A stretch of 64,000 nt of DNA from Candidatus Kapaibacterium sp. (GCA_018882895.1 VERF01000004.1:554-64553); one strand, 5' to 3'; shown: positions 6,683 through 61,077, numbered from the stretch's first letter. The notes: generated by a model not told the origin, from the sequence alone. Made by a program: numbers and translations.

Positions 6683-7645
6683 TCAAAGGTTTGGCCACTC
6701 ACGAGTGAGATAGCCGTTCACATAGTCAGCAACAGAGTCTTCCAGCGAACCGAAGGCAACGCCCGGAAGGTTCGCATGAAACGTCGACATATCAGCTTGC
6801 GTATAGTTCTGATACTGCTTCGCGAGCTCCGGCGGCATATCGATGTACCGGATGTCGGCCGGCAGCCCCATGGCCGCAAACGTTGCTGCCATAAGATCGT
6901 TCCATGATCTGGCAACGCCGGTACCAAGGTTGAGGATGCCGTTCACGTCCGGGCGCTGTAGGAGCCGAAGCATCACGTTGCAGACATCCTTGACGTAGAT
7001 AAAGTCGCGCATCTGCCCGCCGTCACCGTACGCCCCATCCGTGCTCTTGAAAAGCTCTACATAGCCCCGTTGACGAATCTGCTCGACAGATTTCGAGACC
7101 AGACTCGCCATCGATCCCTTGTGGTATTCATTCGGACCGAAGACATTGAAGAACTTGAGGCCGACACATCTGACCTGCATGTCATTTCGGCGCACCCACT
7201 GATCGAACAGGTGCTTTGAGTACCCATACATGTTCAGTGGCCGCAAATCAGTGGTCACATCAGAATAGCCCCTTGACCCATCTCCATAGGTGGCGGCTGA
7301 ACTGGCGTAGATGAACCGTACCCCTTGAGCGGCGGCAAACTCTGCAACATCCACACTGTACTGATAGTTGTTGTCGTACAGGTAGTCTGCGCTGGTCTCT
7401 GTCGTGGAACTGCAAGCTCCCAGATGGATGATGGCATCAATGGATTCATCGAAATCACCCAGGGCCATCATGTCCCGGAAGTCGTCCTTGCTGACAATGT
7501 CAATGTACGTCTTGCCCACCAGGTTCTTCCATTTCTGACCGTTGCCTAGTGAATCAACGATCAGCACATCTTCTCGACCGGCAGCGTTGAGCGTCGACAG
7601 GAAACAGCTTCCGATGAAGCCGGCGCCACCCGTGAGAATGATCAT
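6683..7645 (-). CDS. hldD: ADP-L-glycero-D-manno-heptose 6-epimerase
   Basis: Co-linear similarity to E. coli HldD/RfaD recalled from memory: MIILTGGAGFIGS, GACSSTTE, DNNYQYS, YASSAATYG, YGYSK, FNVFGPNEYHKGSMAS, LNLGTG, YTQAD. Confidence 0.9.
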   Translation of the reverse strand: MIILTGGAGFIGSCFLSTLNAAGREDVLIVDSLGNGQKWKNLVGKTYIDIVSKDDFRDMMALGDFDESIDAIIHLGACSSTTETSADYLYDNNYQYSVDVAEFAAAQGVRFIYASSAATYGDGSRGYSDVTTDLRPLNMYGYSKHLFDQWVRRNDMQVRCVGLKFFNVFGPNEYHKGSMASLVSKSVEQIRQRGYVELFKSTDGAYGDGGQMRDFIYVKDVCNVMLRLLQRPDVNGILNLGTGVARSWNDLMAATFAAMGLPADIRYIDMPPELAKQYQNYTQADMSTFHANLPGVAFGSLEDSVADYVNGYLTREWPNL

Positions 7646-9251: not shown

Positions 9252-9791
9252 TTACGCCTGCGCCAGCTGCTTGCCGAGCACGGCGAGTTGATGTCGAAGC
9301 GATCCATCGTGAACCTGATCACCGATGCGGATGACAGCACCGCCGATGATGGATGCATCAACCGAATATGATGCAATAATTGAGCGTCCGAGTGACTTCG
9401 ACAAAGACCCCTCAATACGCGATCGTTCCTCAGCAGATAGGTCCGCTGCCGACGTGACATCCACCCGCTGAACGTTGCGAATCGTGTCGATCTGTGCGTC
9501 CACCTCGTCGGCCACATCGCGCCATATACCGCCACGCCCCTTCTCGATCACCAAGTGCAGGAACGAGAGTGTCAGGGGGCTGATCTTGGACGAGAGCAAT
9601 TCATCGATGACGCTCTTCTTGAGGCTATGCGTAATGACCGGACTGCGCATCATGGCCTGCAGTTCCTTGGAGGAATCGATCGTTGAGCGCACCATTGCCA
9701 TGTCGGCCGAAACGGCATCGACAGAGCCGTCAGCTACGGCCGAGGCAATGAGTGATTTGGCGTAACGACGCGCGATCTTGAAACTTGACAT
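9252..9791 (-). CDS. atpH: F1 ATP synthase delta (OSCP) subunit
   Basis: 179 aa with N-terminal IARRYAKSLI and C-terminal GGAVIRIGDQVHDGSLRHQL, characteristic of OSCP/delta. Positioned between atpF and atpA. Confidence 0.9.
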   Translation of the reverse strand: MSSFKIARRYAKSLIASAVADGSVDAVSADMAMVRSTIDSSKELQAMMRSPVITHSLKKSVIDELLSSKISPLTLSFLHLVIEKGRGGIWRDVADEVDAQIDTIRNVQRVDVTSAADLSAEERSRIEGSLSKSLGRSIIASYSVDASIIGGAVIRIGDQVHDGSLRHQLAVLGKQLAQA

Positions 9792-9796
9792 GGTAA

Positions 9797-10291
9797 TCAG
9801 TTCTTCGAGAGTTCGTTGACGTAACTGTCGACAATGCGCTTATGATCTTCACCATCAAGCGATCGGCCGATAAGCTTCTCCGTTGCTCCGACCACCAGCG
9901 ATGCTACCTCGGTGCGGAGAACCTGAATGGCATCGTCCATTTGACGGTCGATCTCGCGCTTCGCCTCGGCCAGCTTCTGCTGCTTTACGTGCTCGGCCTC
10001 TTCCGTTGCGCGGCGAATGATGTTCTCAGCCTGCACGCGACCTTCCTTGACGATGTCCATCGTCTCACGCTGTGCCTTGGCCAGACGCTCCTGGTTCTCC
10101 CTGATGAGCTCCTGCGCCTCCTTGTTGGCACGCTCCGCACCGGCGATCGCTTCGCGAATGGACCCCTCACGTGAGGCAATCGCATCGCGCATCGGCTTCC
10201 AGCCGAACTTTCCGATGATTAGCGCGAAGATGGAGAAGTTGATCAGGGTCCAGATAACCAGACCGGGGTCGAAAGAAAGAAATGCTGGCAT
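9797..10291 (-). CDS. atpF: Fo ATP synthase subunit b
   Basis: One N-terminal TM helix followed by a long charged coiled-coil region (AEAKREIDRQ..). Position in the operon supports the call. Confidence 0.9.
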   Translation of the reverse strand: MPAFLSFDPGLVIWTLINFSIFALIIGKFGWKPMRDAIASREGSIREAIAGAERANKEAQELIRENQERLAKAQRETMDIVKEGRVQAENIIRRATEEAEHVKQQKLAEAKREIDRQMDDAIQVLRTEVASLVVGATEKLIGRSLDGEDHKRIVDSYVNELSKN

Positions 10292-10302
10292 GTCAGGGAG
10301 TG

Positions 10303-10407
10303 AGTTACCAGTTACGAGTTACTAGTTACTAGGTACTAGTTACTAGATACTAGTTACGAGGGACTAGTTAGTAGGGACTCGTTGCTGGGGACTAGTGCTT
10401 AGTGGGA
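10303..10407. repeat. Tandem heptanucleotide array, arm B (15 degenerate units, consensus AGTTACT on the + strand)
   Basis: Parsed by hand: AGTTACC AGTTACG AGTTACT AGTTACT AGGTACT AGTTACT AGATACT AGTTACG AGGGACT AGTTAGT AGGGACT CGTTGCT GGGGACT AGTGCTT AGTGGGA. It is the reverse complement of the 10444-10660 array and ends 11 nt from the atpF ATG. Confidence 0.95.
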
Positions 10408-10443
10408 GAATGTTGTTGTGAAAGACGCTGAACCGGCCCTAAG

Positions 10444-10660
10444 TACCTGGTACCTAGTACCCAGTAACTAGTACCTAGTAACTAGTACCTCGTACCTCGT
10501 ACCTAGTACCTCGTACCTAGTAACTAGTAACTAGTACCTCGTACCTAGTACCTCGTACCTAGTACCTAGTACCTAGTACCTAGTACCTCGTACCTAGTAA
10601 CTAGTACCTAGTACCTAGTACCTCGTACCTCGTACCTAGTACCTCGTACCTAGTGCCTCG
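10444..10660. repeat. Tandem heptanucleotide array, arm A (31 in-phase units TACCTAG / TACCTCG / TAACTAG on the + strand)
   Basis: 217 nt is exactly 31 x 7. Hand parse gives TACCTGG, TACCTAG, TACCCAG, TAACTAG, ... TGCCTCG. There are no unique spacers between units. Confidence 0.97.
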
Positions 10661-10714
10661 GTCGTCAAGCACGGGTAGGTACCGAGCCTGACGACCGACC
10701 CCGGCGTGCGGGGT
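10659..10714 (-). promoter_or_regulatory. Two adjacent GC-rich hairpins just downstream of the atpE stop
   Basis: CGGTCGTCA (10659-10667) pairs with TGACGACCG (10689-10697), a perfect 9-bp stem. ACCCCG (10698-10703) pairs with CGGGGT (10709-10714), a 6-bp stem with a 5-nt loop. No U-tract follows in the transcribed direction. Confidence 0.6.
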
Positions 10715-10729
10715 CGAGGGGTGTCAGAA

Positions 10730-10963
10730 TTATGGGTTCTTGACGGCCAGGAGGATACAAACGACGCCGGCAAGAAGGGCAACGCCTTCGATAAGGGCGG
10801 CGCCAATGATCATCGTCGTGCGGATATCACCGGCGTTTTCAGGCTGGCGGCTGCTGGCTTCGAGAGCGGCTGCTGCAAGGCGACCGATACCCGTGCCGAC
10901 GCCGAAAACCGTGATGCCGAGACCGAGGCCGGCTGACAACCAGGCAAATGCGACTGGATCCAT
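10730..10963 (-). CDS. atpE: Fo ATP synthase subunit c
   Basis: Two-helix proteolipid with loop SRQPE and the ion-binding Glu in GAALIEGVALL. ATG at 10963 (MDPVAF..) preferred over 10978. Confidence 0.93.
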   Translation of the reverse strand: MDPVAFAWLSAGLGLGITVFGVGTGIGRLAAAALEASSRQPENAGDIRTTMIIGAALIEGVALLAGVVCILLAVKNP

Positions 10964-11032
10964 GAGATTTCCTTCCAAAGTGAAGATGAATGAAGTGTGT
11001 TGTTAACTCTGTTTGACTTGTCGACGTGCGGA

Positions 11033-12142
11033 TCAGTGAGCTTCTGCGTGATGGTGGTCGTCATGGGCGTGATCACCCAAGGCAAGACCAACAAACACAG
11101 CCGAAAGCATGGTGAAGATGTATGCTTGAAGGAATGCCACAAGCAGTTCCAGCAGGTAGATGAAGACCGAGAACAGAACGCTGATTGGAGCAACACCCCA
11201 GCCAACCGTCGGACCCATCTCCTGTGCGAAGAAAAAGATCAAACCGACGAGCGACATCAGAACGATGTGTCCAGCGGTCATGTTCGCAAACAAACGAATC
11301 ATCAGTGCGAACGGCTTCGTGATGATGCCCACCAGTTCGATCGGAACCATGATCGGTGCGATGTACACGGGAGCGCCACCGAGTAGGTGCGCAAACCACG
11401 CCTTGACGCCGGCATCCTTGAATGCAATGTAGTTGACCACGATGAGCGTACATGTTGCAAGCGCCATCGTGACCGGTAGCGCGCCCGTTGCAGCGTGTGC
11501 ACCGGGGAGAAGCGAGATCAGGTTGAGCGTCAGAATGAAAAAGAACAGAGCCATCATAAATGGCATCAGTCTCTGCGCGCGCTTCTCGGTGCCTACGTTC
11601 GGCTGAACGATCTGATCGCGCACGTAGAGAACAATTGACTCAAGAACATTCTGAATACCGCGTGGGGCAGACATCGGAGCCTTGCGATACCGCGAACGCG
11701 CAATGGCAAACAGACCCGTCACAAGGATCATGGCGATCCACTGGTATGCCACGAAGTTGGTGATCGAAAGGTCAAGCGATGGTGACGCGTTTGGAAGCGG
11801 ACATGCTTCCTTCTCGGTGTGAGCTGCATGGGTGCGCACGATGTGATGGCCATGACCCGGGTGGTGCATTGTGAACTGACCACCATCTTCCATTGCATGC
11901 AGGTTCGCATACGTGTGAAAGGCATTGTCCTGATCCATCAGGATCACCGGCAGGATCTCGTAGTGTCCGAAGAAGATGTTCAATTCATGGTGATCACCAA
12001 GCTGATCCAGCAGCTTGTTGAACGTGAACTTCCCATCTGAATGCTCCGCGCCGTGTCCGGTGGCATGAGCACCGGCAGCGGCATGAAGACTGTCTGCCGA
12101 CGGCTGCGTTGAATCGTGCTGTTGTCCGTGTTCGTTGTTCAT
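11033..12142 (-). CDS. atpB: Fo ATP synthase subunit a, with His-rich N- and C-terminal extensions
   Basis: C-terminal half carries the conserved LFANMTAGH (essential Arg in LMIRLFANM) and the LLELLVAFLQAYIF helix. The N-terminal extension of about 130 aa and the C-terminal tail are rich in His. Confidence 0.92.
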   Translation of the reverse strand: MNNEHGQQHDSTQPSADSLHAAAGAHATGHGAEHSDGKFTFNKLLDQLGDHHELNIFFGHYEILPVILMDQDNAFHTYANLHAMEDGGQFTMHHPGHGHHIVRTHAAHTEKEACPLPNASPSLDLSITNFVAYQWIAMILVTGLFAIARSRYRKAPMSAPRGIQNVLESIVLYVRDQIVQPNVGTEKRAQRLMPFMMALFFFILTLNLISLLPGAHAATGALPVTMALATCTLIVVNYIAFKDAGVKAWFAHLLGGAPVYIAPIMVPIELVGIITKPFALMIRLFANMTAGHIVLMSLVGLIFFFAQEMGPTVGWGVAPISVLFSVFIYLLELLVAFLQAYIFTMLSAVFVGLALGDHAHDDHHHAEAH

Positions 12143-12161
12143 AGTCTCGATCGTTCTCGTA

Positions 12162-12545
12162 TCAGGCGTACGCTGCGGTCATGCATGCCATCACAGGTTC
12201 AACCTCTTTTTTTTTAAAGGGGCGATTCGTGCTGGCTAGCTGAAGACGCTTTGTGCGCTCCATAGAGAAGTGAAAAAAAAACACCTCCACCATCAATCCG
12301 GCGAAGGCAGAGATCGAAAACGTCAGGGCGAATGACACTTGGTGCATTTGCACAACCCCCAAACAGAGGTAGGCAAGCGTCACAACCACAATTCCCCGAA
12401 TGGCAAGGCTACCGAACACAATACCCATGAAGGTATTGAGCTCTTTCGACTGCGCACGCTTCGACACGATGTAACCAACCGACGAGTTGGCAACACTGAT
12501 GCCCAGTGCTGTGATGATCGCAACCAATGGCCCCTTCGCATCCAC
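12162..12545 (-). CDS. Small hydrophobic protein at the atpI position (ATP synthase protein I-like)
   Basis: 127 aa with 3-4 TM segments, immediately upstream of atpB on the same strand. Call rests on position and hydrophobicity only. Confidence 0.55.
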   Translation of the reverse strand: MDAKGPLVAIITALGISVANSSVGYIVSKRAQSKELNTFMGIVFGSLAIRGIVVVTLAYLCLGVVQMHQVSFALTFSISAFAGLMVEVFFFHFSMERTKRLQLASTNRPFKKKEVEPVMACMTAAYA

Positions 12546-57155: not shown

Positions 57156-58130
57156 ATGTCACGGCCTCTGCATCCCGATTTTGCCATTGAGGCACTTCAG
57201 CTCCTTGACGCCTCGAGAGCCATCGACGCCGTGCGCCTCTGCAGCATGGGCATTGAGGACTACCCTCAGTATGCCGGTGGCTACGTTATGCTGGCCAAGG
57301 CTTATGCGAAGCTCGGACTGACCGATGATGCCGAGGCTTTGGTGCGCGACATCACGATGCGTTTCCCGCACGTGCATGTGACCCTTTCCCAACGGGAGAC
57401 AGTCGAAGCACCGGTAGTCGAAGCACCGCAAGCCGAAGCACCGGAAGTTGAATCACCGGAAGTTGAATCACCGGAAGCTGAAGCACCGGAAGTCGAAACA
57501 CTGGAAGTTGAAGCACTGGAAGTCGAAACACCGGAAGTCGAGATACCGGAGTTTGAAACACCGGATGTCGTAACACCGGAACTTGTGGCGCAACCAAGTG
57601 AACAGGTCGACGAAGTGTCCGTCGCCCCCTACCACGTCCTTCGCATGATCGAAACGGCGCCGATCGCCGATGATGCGCCGATCATTCGCAGTGGCAGTGT
57701 GCGGCTCATTCCGGGACTGGAGTTCACCACACTGCGTGTCGAGGGGATACGATCGCGCGGGCGCCGTGGTATCGGTTCGCTGCCTGAGCCCCCTTCTTTC
57801 AGAGCATTCCACGCGGTGCGCCGACCTCAGCGTCCGGCTGAACCGACGCCGCAGCGTAAGCCGATCAGTCTCGAGGAACTCGCCTCTCGATTGGTCGATG
57901 TCAAGATGCCGCGTCAAAGCGAGATTGATGCTGCTTCAGCTCGCAACGAGCCTCCACCACCGCCGCAACCCCAGCCGATCCTGGTCACCGAAACGATCGC
58001 CAACATCTACATGCAACAGCAGTCTTACGACCTGGCGATCGAGGCATACAAGACCCTTATGACACGCAAGCCGGAGCGTCGGGATCACTTCGAGGCGCTC
58101 ATCCGCGAATGCGAGCGCAAGCGCGGGTAG
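57156..58130 (+). CDS. Hypothetical protein with TPR-like ends and a central acidic pentapeptide-repeat region
   Basis: TPR-like helices at both ends (YAGGYVMLAKAYAKLGLTDDAEAL; IANIYMQQQSYDLAIEAYKTLM). Central (V/A)E(A/S/T)PE x12. Confidence 0.7.
   Translation: MSRPLHPDFAIEALQLLDASRAIDAVRLCSMGIEDYPQYAGGYVMLAKAYAKLGLTDDAEALVRDITMRFPHVHVTLSQRETVEAPVVEAPQAEAPEVESPEVESPEAEAPEVETLEVEALEVETPEVEIPEFETPDVVTPELVAQPSEQVDEVSVAPYHVLRMIETAPIADDAPIIRSGSVRLIPGLEFTTLRVEGIRSRGRRGIGSLPEPPSFRAFHAVRRPQRPAEPTPQRKPISLEELASRLVDVKMPRQSEIDAASARNEPPPPPQPQPILVTETIANIYMQQQSYDLAIEAYKTLMTRKPERRDHFEALIRECERKRG
57402..57581 (+). repeat. 12 tandem 15-bp coding repeats (GTCGAAGCACCGGAA consensus)
   Basis: Parsed by hand into 12 in-phase 15-mers encoding VEAPV VEAPQ AEAPE VESPE VESPE AEAPE VETLE VEALE VETPE VEIPE FETPD VVTPE. 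Confidence 0.95.
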
Positions 58131-59436: not shown

Positions 59437-60600
59437 TTACCAGACGAATCTGTTGAGGGCTTCGCTGGCGCGAGCAAACGCCTCGTCCACCGTTGCGCCC
59501 GTGGCCGTAAGGTGTCCCATCTTCCGACCCATTCGCACGTCTTTCTTCCCGTATAGGTGCAGGGCAACATCGTCCACCTTCAGCATCTCGATCACACTAT
59601 CGGGAACACCGCTACCGGTGCGCTCACCTAGCAGGTTGATCATGCATGCCGCCGGCACACGCATTTTGGCAGAGCCAAGGGGCATGTTGGTTACCGCACG
59701 AATGACGTTCTCAAACTGCGATGTATGGCAGGCCTCAATGGTGTAGTGTCCGCTATTGTGTGGCCGTGGTGCGATCTCGTTGAAGACGATCTCATCAGCA
59801 AGTGTCAGGAACATCTCAATACCGAACACACCTACGCCACCGATGGCCTCGACGCAGGCAACGGCGATCTCCTGGGCCCTGCGCTGCAGATGATCTTCGA
59901 TCGGTGCCGGTGCAAGTACCGTCACGCAGATATGCCCCTGCTGGATGGTCTGCACGCACGGATATACAGCGATCTCGCCGCGCTTGTTGCGCGCAACCAT
60001 CACTGCCAACTCCTTAGTGAAGGTAACGAATGACTCGGCCAGCAGCGGCCGAGGGTCCTCACCCTCCATGAACCGACGCCACACCATGTCGATCTCGGTC
60101 TCACGCTTGATGGTGGCGTTTCCATAACCATCATACCCGAACTTGCGCGTCTTGGCAACAAACGGATATCCGTGCTTCTGACCAAAGGCAACGAGATCTT
60201 CCTTCGTAGTGATCTCAGCGAACTCCGGCGTCGGAATGCCCGCCCCCTTCATGGTAAGCTTCTGCGTGTACTTGTCCTGCACAAGCCGCATTGTCTGCGG
60301 CGACGGAAACACCAATCGCCGCTCGGCGATGACGTCCAGGATCTCAGGGTCAATGAACTCATTCTCCAACGTTATGATGTCGGAAGCCTGAATGAATCGC
60401 TCCAACTCGGCAGAGTCCTTCCACCCTCCCGGAAACTCCAGCTTGGTCATCACCCCAGCAGGTGAATCCTCGCCATGTTCAATGATCGCCACGCGAAGAC
60501 CCATCCGATAGGCCTCGTGCGCCGTCATCTTCGCAAGCTGCCCACCCCCGAGTATTCCGAGGGTAAGGGGCTTTGTCAGTTGTGTCAGGGAAGGAAGCAT
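59437..60600 (-). CDS. purK: N5-carboxyaminoimidazole ribonucleotide synthase
   Basis: ILGGGQLAKM N-terminus and ATP-grasp motifs (GYPFVAKT..GYDGYGN, EIAPRPHNSGH). Confidence 0.92.
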   Translation of the reverse strand: MLPSLTQLTKPLTLGILGGGQLAKMTAHEAYRMGLRVAIIEHGEDSPAGVMTKLEFPGGWKDSAELERFIQASDIITLENEFIDPEILDVIAERRLVFPSPQTMRLVQDKYTQKLTMKGAGIPTPEFAEITTKEDLVAFGQKHGYPFVAKTRKFGYDGYGNATIKRETEIDMVWRRFMEGEDPRPLLAESFVTFTKELAVMVARNKRGEIAVYPCVQTIQQGHICVTVLAPAPIEDHLQRRAQEIAVACVEAIGGVGVFGIEMFLTLADEIVFNEIAPRPHNSGHYTIEACHTSQFENVIRAVTNMPLGSAKMRVPAACMINLLGERTGSGVPDSVIEMLKVDDVALHLYGKKDVRMGRKMGHLTATGATVDEAFARASEALNRFVW

Positions 60601-60603
60601 TTC

Positions 60604-60631
60604 AGGTTACAGGTTACAGGTTACAGGTTAC
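60604..60631. repeat. Tandem heptanucleotide array (AGGTTAC x4 on +), ending 3 nt from the purK ATG
   Basis: Hand parse of ttc|AGGTTAC|AGGTTAC|AGGTTAC|AGGTTAC|agggg. On the transcribed (minus) strand this reads CCTGTAA x4, giving a TAA in every unit. Confidence 0.95.
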
Positions 60632-60680
60632 AGGGGAAGCAGCAATTTGGTATCAGCTTTACCTCGGTGAAAGATCGAGC

Positions 60681-60715
60681 CTGTCACCTGTCACCCATCA
60701 CCTGTCACCTGTTCA
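60681..60715. repeat. Tandem heptanucleotide array (CTGTCAC x5, two variant units, on +), an imperfect inverted partner of 60604-60631
   Basis: CTGTCAC CTGTCAC CCATCAC CTGTCAC CTGTTCA. On the minus strand this reads CAGGTGA units (TGA in every unit). The array encodes the last 6 aa and the stop of acpS (..EQVTGDG*). Confidence 0.9.
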
Positions 60716-61077
60716 ATCACTACCACTGCCAAAGCAACGGTAGATGTGTGGCTAAGTGAGACATGGATGGTGTGTGATCCCCATCGTTCGAGCATGGCAC
60801 CGAAGAGTTCGATACGGGGCTCACCGGATTTCTCGTTCACGATGCCGACGAGCTTAAAGGACATACCATCGCGCATGCCGGTCTTGACGGCCTTGGAGAA
60901 GGCCTCCTTTGCGGCAAAGCGAGCGGCGTAATGAAGAAAACGTGTTTCACCGAAATGGTCACAGTAGGCGATCTCGGTGTCGGTGAAGATCTTCGACAAA
61001 AACCGATCGCCGTACTGGTCGTAGGCAGCTTTGATGCGCGGGACGTCCACCACGTCGGTACCGATGCCGATGATCAT
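60691..61077 (-). CDS. acpS: Holo-[acyl-carrier-protein] synthase
   Basis: [26 protein letters not shown] and SLSHT motifs. ATG at 61077 verified; it overlaps the cobB stop. Confidence 0.9.
   Translation of the reverse strand: MIIGIGTDVVDVPRIKAAYDQYGDRFLSKIFTDTEIAYCDHFGETRFLHYAARFAAKEAFSKAVKTGMRDGMSFKLVGIVNEKSGEPRIELFGAMLERWGSHTIHVSLSHTSTVALAVVVIEQVTGDG

Follow-up and report, generated by a model that had tools for sequence, protein, structure and literature searches.

The gap between atpE and atpF in the window (the whole stretch of 64,000 nucleotides of DNA that was analyzed) holds two arrays of tandem heptanucleotides, of about 15 and 31 units, arranged as inverted partners. We give a probability of about one half to the reading that they are a hypervariable heptanucleotide SSR pair (LSSR, STRR or 'TAACTGA-type'), made by slippage, and that the mRNA hairpin they are predicted to form buries the atpF leader. 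The large inverted array is specific to the strain of the window, and the positions that carry heptamers are conserved at atpF while the identity of the unit turns over.

The homologues of AtpF and PurK were from MAGs named 'Bacteroidota', 'Candidatus Kapabacteria', 'Ignavibacteria' and 'Chlorobiota', and we therefore place the host in a lineage of the FCB group. The genes on the window's minus strand are ordered atpB, atpE, a 438-nt gap (10292–10729), atpF, atpH and atpA. The features of the locus are as follows:

11033–12142, minus strand: atpB (ORF).
10730–10963, minus strand: atpE, the upstream cistron, encoding the F0 c subunit of 77 aa (ORF; relatives encode an identical protein matching PF00137).
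10697–10715, minus strand: stem-loop 1, GACCCCG-CACGC-CGGGGTC, 3' of the atpE stop; 7 pairs, in all relatives.
10660–10696, minus strand: stem-loop 2, GGTCGTCAGGCTCGG...CCGTGCTTGACGACC; 14 predicted pairs, conserved.
10442–10659, minus strand: 5' arm, 31 phased heptamers (AGGTACT x14, AGGTACG x9, AGTTACT x5 and 3 variants), from TRF and a unit parse.
10408–10441, minus strand: non-repeat spacer, the predicted hairpin loop, which includes TCTTTCAC; its sequence is unique in the window.
10303–10407, minus strand: 3' arm, about 15 heptamers, AGTAACT being dominant and alternating with CCCTAGT-like units (TRF periods 7 and 14).
10292–10302, minus strand: 11-nt linker CACTCCCTGAC preceding the atpF ATG; its CCTGAC end is common to the closest relative (L001–L003).
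9797–10291, minus strand: atpF, the downstream cistron, encoding the F0 b subunit of 164 aa, with the 3' arm as its leader (length and start agree with those of the homologues).

Read as RNA, the gap has, after the atpE stop, the two stem-loops, (AGGUACU)31, a spacer of about 34–36 nt, about 15 AGUAACU units and finally the 11 nt CACUCCCUGAC between the AGUAACU arm and the atpF AUG (ATG at 10289–10291). TRF reported the long arm at 10442–10658 (period 7, 31.0 copies, 87% matches, 0 indels, score 315) and the short arm at 10303–10374 (period 7, 10.3 copies, 80%), with a period of 14 that reaches 10396. On the plus strand, the long block was parsed into TACCTAG x14, TACCTCG x9, TAACTAG x5 and 3 singletons, and the short block into 15 AGTTACT-like units, the 4–5 units closest to the loop being very degenerate. 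The two blocks are convergent on opposite strands and 34–58 nt apart; as 93-nt arms (10303–10395 against 10454–10546) they are 84% complementary, and many other registers reach 74–86%. The initial annotation had described 15 degenerate and 31 phased heptamers in inverted orientation, which TRF, the unit parse and the complementarity of the arms bear out, and it was also correct on the spacer of 36 nt, the phased block of 217 nt, the 11 nt to the atpF ATG and the stop codons in all frames. It had the arrays filling the whole gap, which is not the case, as the 70 nt adjoining atpE are the two conserved stem-loops. The block of CTAG that it pointed out is indeed a concentration of this tetranucleotide, with 26 (60%) of the window's 43 copies in the element, but 26 were counted where about 40 had been announced; outside the element there are 17 copies, where base composition predicts 238 and a Markov model 55.

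The consensus heptamers of both arms lack a G-tract of three or more residues, and GGG occurs only in single degenerate units, such as CTGGGTA in the atpF 5' arm and GATGGGT in the 5' arm of a second element, before purK, described below. Self-match scans of the whole window detected arrays at period 7 alone, with almost none at the other periods from 4 to 11. A period-15 array at 57401–57581 is a coding peptide repeat, unrelated to the heptamers. No SD-like motif was found ahead of atpF and purK, a statement made for these hand-checked genes, the SD-usage profile from first-ATG ORFs being uninformative. A scan of 9700–12300 identified no promoter- or terminator-like sites in the gap, Bacteroidota-type promoters lying outside the coverage of the tool. 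No Rfam family matched at the gathering score anywhere in the whole window, and the e-value search of the gap yielded sub-threshold matches to miRNA precursors alone, which correspond to generic long hairpins.

The minus-strand RNA from 10280 to 10735 had a predicted folding energy of −207.6 kcal/mol, against −160.3 ± 6.3 kcal/mol for dinucleotide shuffles (z = −7.5), in agreement with the proposal of the initial annotation that the atp transcript can form a long imperfect hairpin in which roughly one G.A mismatch falls in each heptad. In the MFE structure, 72 pairs join 10454–10536 of one arm to 10313–10395 of the other, and 71 of these are Watson-Crick. The dominant units of the two arms pair at 6 of 7 positions, leaving one G.A mismatch, and each arm contains minority units that are the perfect complement of the majority unit of the opposite arm. 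About 16 units of the 5' arm have no partner in the 3' arm, and in the MFE structure the surplus units form 44 pairs among themselves. The computed probability of being unpaired at positions −30 to −11 of the atpF leader was 0.22 in the window, versus 0.83–0.87 in four relatives (L001, L002, L004 and L007) and 0.57 in the array-less relative with 80% AtpF identity (L010); the same region of the purK leader had a value of 0.19 in the window, versus 0.49–0.58 in relatives. Positions −10 to +12 around the ATG are predicted to be fairly open in the window (0.55–0.65), and occlusion may therefore be weak.

We compared seventeen related atp loci, from about six lineages. The atpE-atpF gap in these loci measures 115–134 nt (115–127 nt in the relatives with 96% AtpF identity) and consists of two stem-loops after the atpE stop and, except in the 80% lineage, a short forward heptamer array; the inverted arm was absent from all seventeen. 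The array comprises 4–6 forward heptamers, ends 2–3 nt ahead of the atpF ATG, and its unit differs with the lineage:

AtpF identity 96%: leader unit AAAACCC / AGAACCC.
AtpF identity 91%, together with the lineages with identical AtpE: leader unit CACACCT.
AtpF identity 89%: leader unit AAACCTG / TAACCTG (relative L007: A/TAACCTG).
AtpF identity 80%: no unit at the atpF leader.

L001 and L002, identical in AtpF, have arrays that differ by 12 nt. These differences among relatives, together with those at purK, lead us to regard the atpF and purK leaders as hotspots with a fast turnover of units, at which the large inverted structure is strain-specific.

The part of the gap next to atpE behaves differently. 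Compensatory double changes were observed in 10 of the 21 pairs of the two stem-loops (7 lineages), with changes on both sides in 9 of the 14 pairs of stem-loop 2 and one compensatory change in stem-loop 1. It had been suggested that the heptamer element sets the ratio of c to b subunits; this is unlikely, as lineages with 80–96% AtpF identity have a gap of 115–134 nt without the inverted arm, and a block that close relatives lack cannot be a conserved device for this ratio. The covarying double stem-loop after atpE is probably a better candidate for conserved control, and it could, for example, protect the 3' end of a transcript ending with atpE.

The window contains one further period-7 locus (60601–60712, minus strand), located between acpS (60691–61077) and purK, with the following features:

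60680–60712, minus strand: 5' arm, about 5 units of CAGGTGA (TRF, sequence and translation).
60638–60679, minus strand: spacer or loop of 42 nt, which also has TCTTTCAC (sequence).
60601–60637, minus strand: 3' arm, TAACCTG x4.6 (TRF, 100% matches).
59437–60600, minus strand: purK, 387 aa (homologues of 387 aa with the same start).

The 5' arm of this element encodes the end of acpS, that is, its last six codons (..QVTGDG) and the TGA stop (60691–60693). The purK transcript would thus read about 5 CAGGUGA units, the 42-nt spacer, (UAACCUG)4.6, AA and AUG, the 3' arm stopping about 1–2 nt short of the purK ATG (60598–60600). In the predicted fold, each unit of one arm pairs with the other arm at 6 of its 7 positions, and the remaining one is a G.A mismatch. 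The only sequence common to the atpF and purK elements is one 8-mer, TCTTTCAC. The purK relatives at 87–88% identity have a gap of 11–12 nt with no repeats, and a relative at 92% (L138) has a gap of 195 nt, in which inverted heptamers (GACGAGT / CACTCGT) flank a 56-nt tandem triplet. A CRISPR array is ruled out by the contiguous 7-mers without spacers, and IS ends are excluded by the anatomy. We reject a REP or MITE-type mobile element on two grounds: no other copy of the spacer of the atpF element was found in the window with up to 3 mismatches allowed, and the two elements have nothing but the 8-mer in common. The initial annotation had likewise set these three classes (CRISPR, REP and IS end) aside.

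Units of the AGGTAC type are also found elsewhere, at unrelated loci of two related MAGs and in viral sequences: flanked by an antitoxin-like and a Fic gene in L024 (an assembly shared with the 88% purK relative), next to a tRNA gene in L099 (an Ignavibacteria MAG), and in seven IMG/VR contigs. With these arrays, the purK element and the related arrays at atpF, the tract is not an orphan; a single orphan tract was what the initial annotation had named as a possible refutation. We also surveyed GTDB species genomes for (GTAMCNN)x4, obtaining at least 120 stretches, each studied as an 8-kb locus. The groups among the matches listed were Bacteroidota, Ignavibacteria, Gemmatimonadota, Acidobacteriota, Planctomycetota, Chloroflexota, Cyanobacteria, Patescibacteria, Proteobacteria, Actinomycetota and others; the GTAAC core in this cross-phylum set is partly an artefact of the search pattern used. 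These loci contained at least 253 period-7 arrays, and among the matches listed 59 of 253 (23%) had an inverted partner within 250 nt, defined as at least 3 units in which 18 or more of 21 positions fit the reverse complement of the consensus of that array, versus 4 in the reversed and 7 in the complemented control (2–3%). At least 20 adjacent inverted pairs, including the two of the window, have 0–1 mismatch per consensus unit. For 12 of the 20 pairs listed, a candidate start of a long ORF lies 1–15 nt past an arm (1–20 nt for ATG alone), a figure that is indicative only, as it has no control and the starts are homologue-verified inside the window only; measures based on the first start after an array are, moreover, biased by the all-frame stops of the arrays. 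Comparison of sense and antisense folding energies for 12 oriented inverted pairs among the matches listed showed no consistent bias, the antisense strand being more stable in 6. For this reason we make no claim that an mRNA hairpin has been selected for, and the inverted symmetry may be a mere by-product at the DNA level.

We suggest that the arrays arose and grew in situ in the atpF leader, by replication slippage and template switching. The minority units that perfectly complement the opposite arm, and the roughly 16 partnerless units of the 5' arm, would be marks of slippage and concerted evolution. The starting state would have been a short, G-poor and unstructured forward heptamer array like those of the related lineages, and in the strain of the window this leader array has gained an inverted partner that over-expanded to 31 units. 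Both arms are presumably transcribed, because the gap sits inside the co-directional atpB-E-F-H-A operon and gave no promoter or terminator matches. In the mRNA, the arms are predicted to zip together over about 72 bp into a long imperfect helix, which is interrupted by a G.A mismatch every 7 nt and would cover the atpF leader from −11 to about −110. Such a helix would be expected to lower or tune the translation of atpF, to provide RNase III with a double-stranded substrate, or both. The arrangement is strain-specific and would thus be a recent, evolvable modifier, possibly a near-neutral one. The adaptive value of a strong repressor hairpin in an essential operon is not obvious. Among the roles offered in the initial annotation, a contingency locus varying by slippage and an occlusion of the atpF initiation region are plausible.

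Four other explanations have to be weighed against a slippage-made pair that buries the atpF leader. According to one of them, which we consider somewhat unlikely, the arrays are neutral junk, a runaway microsatellite-like expansion tolerated in a non-coding gap without real consequence for atp expression, whose symmetry reflects template switching between strands. Their strain specificity and absence from relatives with 96% identity are consistent with this explanation, as are the surplus of about 16 unpaired units in the 5' arm, the computed accessibility of the immediate start region, the lack of a sense-strand stability bias in the inverted pairs among the matches listed, and the occurrence of the AGGTAC-type unit in unrelated contexts such as viral contigs and a site beside a tRNA gene. 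However, at least four lineages keep a heptamer array exactly at the atpF leader despite the turnover of the unit, both elements of the window adjoin verified start codons, and a leader helix of about 72 bp is unlikely to be inconsequential, given the precedent of the hmw1A hairpin discussed below. We consider it highly improbable that the element is an artefact, through misassembly or chimerism of a metagenome-assembled contig. Tandem repeats are a classical site of misassembly, and no independent assembly with this atpF allele was found: the AtpF of the window had no exact match in the protein collection, and two scans of metagenome DNA (with the array/hairpin junction and with a 29-nt conserved hairpin) gave no match to the locus. 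Nevertheless, the longest exact repeat within 10251–10720 is 40 nt, so that the array, with its aperiodic unit variants, has a unique path and is resolved unambiguously at any k ≥ 41, with no ambiguous collapse. Both flanks are collinear with the relatives, another, independent element built in the same way occurs 50 kb away, and many finished and long-read assemblies carry comparable arrays, all of which argues against an artefact.

Two explanations remain. The forward heptamers, with their GUAAC or AACC core spaced at 7 nt, might bind an RNA-binding protein similar to S1, Csp or CsrA, or act as an SD-independent enhancer, the inverted arm then being an anti-leader that masks them. This was the proposal of MacGregor 2015 (PMC4679880) for TAACTGA arrays at starts without an RBS, and the absence of an SD-like motif at atpF and purK and the core common to GTAACTA (atpF), GTAACCT (purK) and A/TAACCTG (atpF of L007) fit with it. 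We nevertheless regard it as improbable. The unit at the atpF site changes between close lineages (AAAACCC, CACACCT, AAACCTG, AACTAGT), which argues against a sequence-specific binder; there are just two loci in 64 kb, no candidate protein was found, and the shared core partly reflects the pattern with which the cross-phylum set was searched. Alternatively, the element could act at the DNA level, as a contingency locus or as a non-B-DNA or recombination hotspot affecting replication or transcription, for which we see very little likelihood. Heptamer SSRs are tied to polymerase slippage in the account given by Mrazek 2007, array length differs among Xanthomonas species (PMC4692102), and the extrusion of a cruciform by inverted arrays is conceivable in principle. 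However, atpF and purK are housekeeping genes rather than surface or virulence genes, and the arrays are non-coding and lie outside a promoter, so there is no obvious route to on/off switching; the spacer of 34–58 nt and the 16% of mismatches would also disfavor a cruciform. The slippage-made pair with a predicted leader hairpin remains the reading that we prefer. It may be extended to the tentative and rather doubtful idea that inverted heptamer hairpins abutting start codons are pan-bacterial, evolvable 'dimmers' of translation or RNase III processing, of convergent origin, with the atpF leader of this Ignavibacteria/Kapabacteria-like lineage as a hotspot. Inverted pairs in at least 8 phyla among the matches listed would then have been generated convergently, and a leader that is unstructured and favors initiation would become sequestered on gaining an inverted arm.

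The atpF locus provides a natural allelic series, from no array, through a short forward array predicted to be unstructured, to a large inverted array predicted to be sequestered, which could be used to test the tuning of translation or mRNA processing by repeats in bacteria not dependent on Shine-Dalgarno pairing. It would be of interest to do so, since the function of heptamer repeats, the most over-represented long simple repeats of prokaryotes, is almost unstudied. For annotation, the locus is a warning that a large block rich in CTAG within an operon gap can be a recent, strain-specific expansion of repeats and not a conserved regulator.

STRRs in the strict sense are defined by specific cyanobacterial units and belong to heterocystous cyanobacteria. 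The elements of the window, with the units AGGTACT/AGTAACT and CAGGTGA/TAACCTG and a host of the FCB group, differ from them in unit sequence and in phylum. They resemble STRRs and LSSRs, on the other hand, in their period of 7, their intergenic or intercistronic and dispersed location and their rapid turnover, and as tandem, dispersed arrays that are variable among close relatives they belong to the broader class of heptanucleotide LSSR/STRR-like repeats; at the atpF leader, copy number and identity vary from 15 + 31 units in the window to 4–6 or none in the relatives. The analogy with STRRs drawn in the initial annotation is apt as a 'works like' comparison. In its treatment of long SSRs, Mrazek 2007 presents the heptamers as the most over-represented class in prokaryotes. 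Heptamers close to start codons have been described in Nostoc (Pradhan 2022, preprint), and a 26-unit GGGGATT array is located between pecE and pecF in the pec operon of Anabaena (PMC4692102).

The closest likeness in position is to the direct repeats of the heptamer TAACTGA that MacGregor 2015 (PMC4679880) described in Beggiatoaceae, 15 Cyanobacteria and 5 Bacteroidetes. Those arrays are mostly forward, end about 1 nt ahead of start codons without an RBS and sometimes overlap the end of the upstream ORF; they reach up to 43 copies in some Bacteroidetes, the close relatives of which have short, repeat-free gaps, and S1, Csp or CsrA binding was proposed for them. The elements of the window share with this family the tandem forward heptamers near a start codon without an RBS, at 11 nt (atpF) and about 1–2 nt (purK) from homologue-verified ATGs, the all-frame stops and the overlap with an upstream ORF's end (acpS). 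They differ in their units (TAACTAG and TAACCTG, each at 2 of 7 positions from TAACTGA), in the presence of inverted partner arrays in both elements, versus a single inverted case in 170 TAACTGA sets (PMC4679880), and in a Kapabacteria/Ignavibacteria-like host, outside that study. The idea that such elements were undescribed in FCB bacteria was wrong, since published heptamer arrays, those of TAACTGA in five Bacteroidetes (PMC4679880), already cover the Bacteroidetes. In its discussion of initiation in SD-less Bacteroidetes, Baez 2019 (PMC6847099) reports tuning by mRNA secondary structure.

The inverted arrangement itself has a counterpart in Xanthomonas, where Rehm 2015 (PMC4692102) counted 70–75 inverted pairs of GGGAATC heptamer arrays per genome. 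These arrays are mostly intergenic and transcribed, their potential to form stem-loops was noted by the authors, and related genomes differ in the length of the arrays but not in their type (single or inverted). As in the window, two nearby arrays converge on opposite strands. However, the Xanthomonas units (GGGNATC) are G-rich, with G-quadruplex or i-motif structures, whereas those of the window are without G-tracts, and adjacency to start codons was not reported for Xanthomonas.

The 5'-UTR of Haemophilus influenzae hmw1A provides the sole experimentally grounded mechanism for such a structure. Rapun-Araiz 2025 (PMC12721329) showed that its (ATCTTTC)n repeats form a long imperfect hairpin, the cleavage of which by RNase III increases expression; changes in repeat number depend on the hairpin, about 10 repeats form it and additional repeats leave it unchanged. 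The window would share the combination of a heptamer SSR in a presumably transcribed leader and a long imperfect hairpin, the latter as a predicted fold. Unlike in the window, the right arm in hmw1A is a non-repeat G-rich stretch and not an inverted array, and the gene is a monocistronic, phase-variable adhesin gene versus the intercistronic gap of a housekeeping operon. We conclude that the element is an SSR array of heptanucleotides, which sits close to a start codon as the TAACTGA arrays do and is inverted in the manner of the Xanthomonas pairs, that it may, by analogy, act as the hmw1A hairpin does, and that nothing at the atpF locus goes beyond phenomena already described.

A second inverted pair of heptamer arrays lies on the window's minus strand, in the acpS-purK gap, and two stem-loops immediately follow atpE:

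60601-60712, minus strand: inverted heptamer pair in the acpS/purK gap, consisting of about 5 units of CAGGTGA, a 42-nt spacer and 4.6 units of TAACCTG
10660-10715: two stem-loops directly 3' of the atpE stop codon, kept in 7 lineages

The 3' arm of the second element stops 2 nt short of the purK ATG, and in relatives with 87-88% identity the acpS-purK gap is only 11-12 nt long. The acpS reading frame enters the array (60691-60712), such that heptamer units encode the C-terminal residues (..QVTGDG) and the TGA stop codon. The AcpS tail is therefore unlike those of the relatives, which end in ..IESVSQS* or ..LEQP*. In L138, a purK relative with 92% identity, the same gap contains a 56-nt unit repeated three times, flanked by the inverted heptamers GACGAGT and CACTCGT (whole arrangement, 340-545). 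The repeat solution at this shared hotspot differs from that of the window.

The loops of the two inverted elements, at atpE-atpF and acpS-purK, have the octamer TCTTTCAC in common on the transcript strand (10418-10425 and 60667-60674). This octamer occurs only three times in the window, against an expected 1.9, and the probability that the two loops would share an 8-mer by chance, calculated post hoc, is about 1-2%. Once both elements were excluded from the window, CTAG was the most strongly depleted palindromic tetranucleotide, with 17 occurrences versus 55 expected from a Markov model and 238 from base composition. GTAC was close to expectation (observed/expected ratio 0.78), and GATC, with 620 occurrences versus 238 expected from base composition, was strongly over-represented. 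The window also contains a period-15 tandem array (57401-57581; 12 copies of AGTCGAAGCACCGGA) within a coding region, encoding a V/A-E-A/T-P-E-like pentapeptide repeat; this array is unrelated to the heptamers.

The stem-loops after atpE display compensatory changes in 10 of 21 pairs across the 7 lineages and had no match in Rfam; for atpE they may act as an element that stabilises the transcript or serves in its processing. Elsewhere in the atp locus, a gene for an NAD-dependent epimerase/dehydratase (6683-7645 in the window) interrupts the usual atpA-atpG adjacency throughout the lineage, being present also in the related loci L001-L012.

Arrays of (AGGTACR)n were found at other sites in related Ignavibacteria-like MAGs (L099, 7790-7901; L024, 683-773), one adjoining a tRNA gene and the other in the gap from which an antitoxin-like gene and a Fic-family gene diverge. 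Among the matches listed from the scan of GTDB species genomes, inverted pairs with 0-1 mismatch per unit were present at loci L015, L021, L054, L066, L071, L076, L103, L109, L116, L128 and L130, in Gemmatimonadales, Planctomycetota, Patescibacteria, Rickettsiales, Poribacteria, Acidobacteriaceae, Chthoniobacterales, Chloroflexota, Flavobacteriales and Dysgonomonas. Many of these listed pairs have a candidate start codon, assigned from a long ORF rather than verified by homologues, 3-20 nt past one arm.
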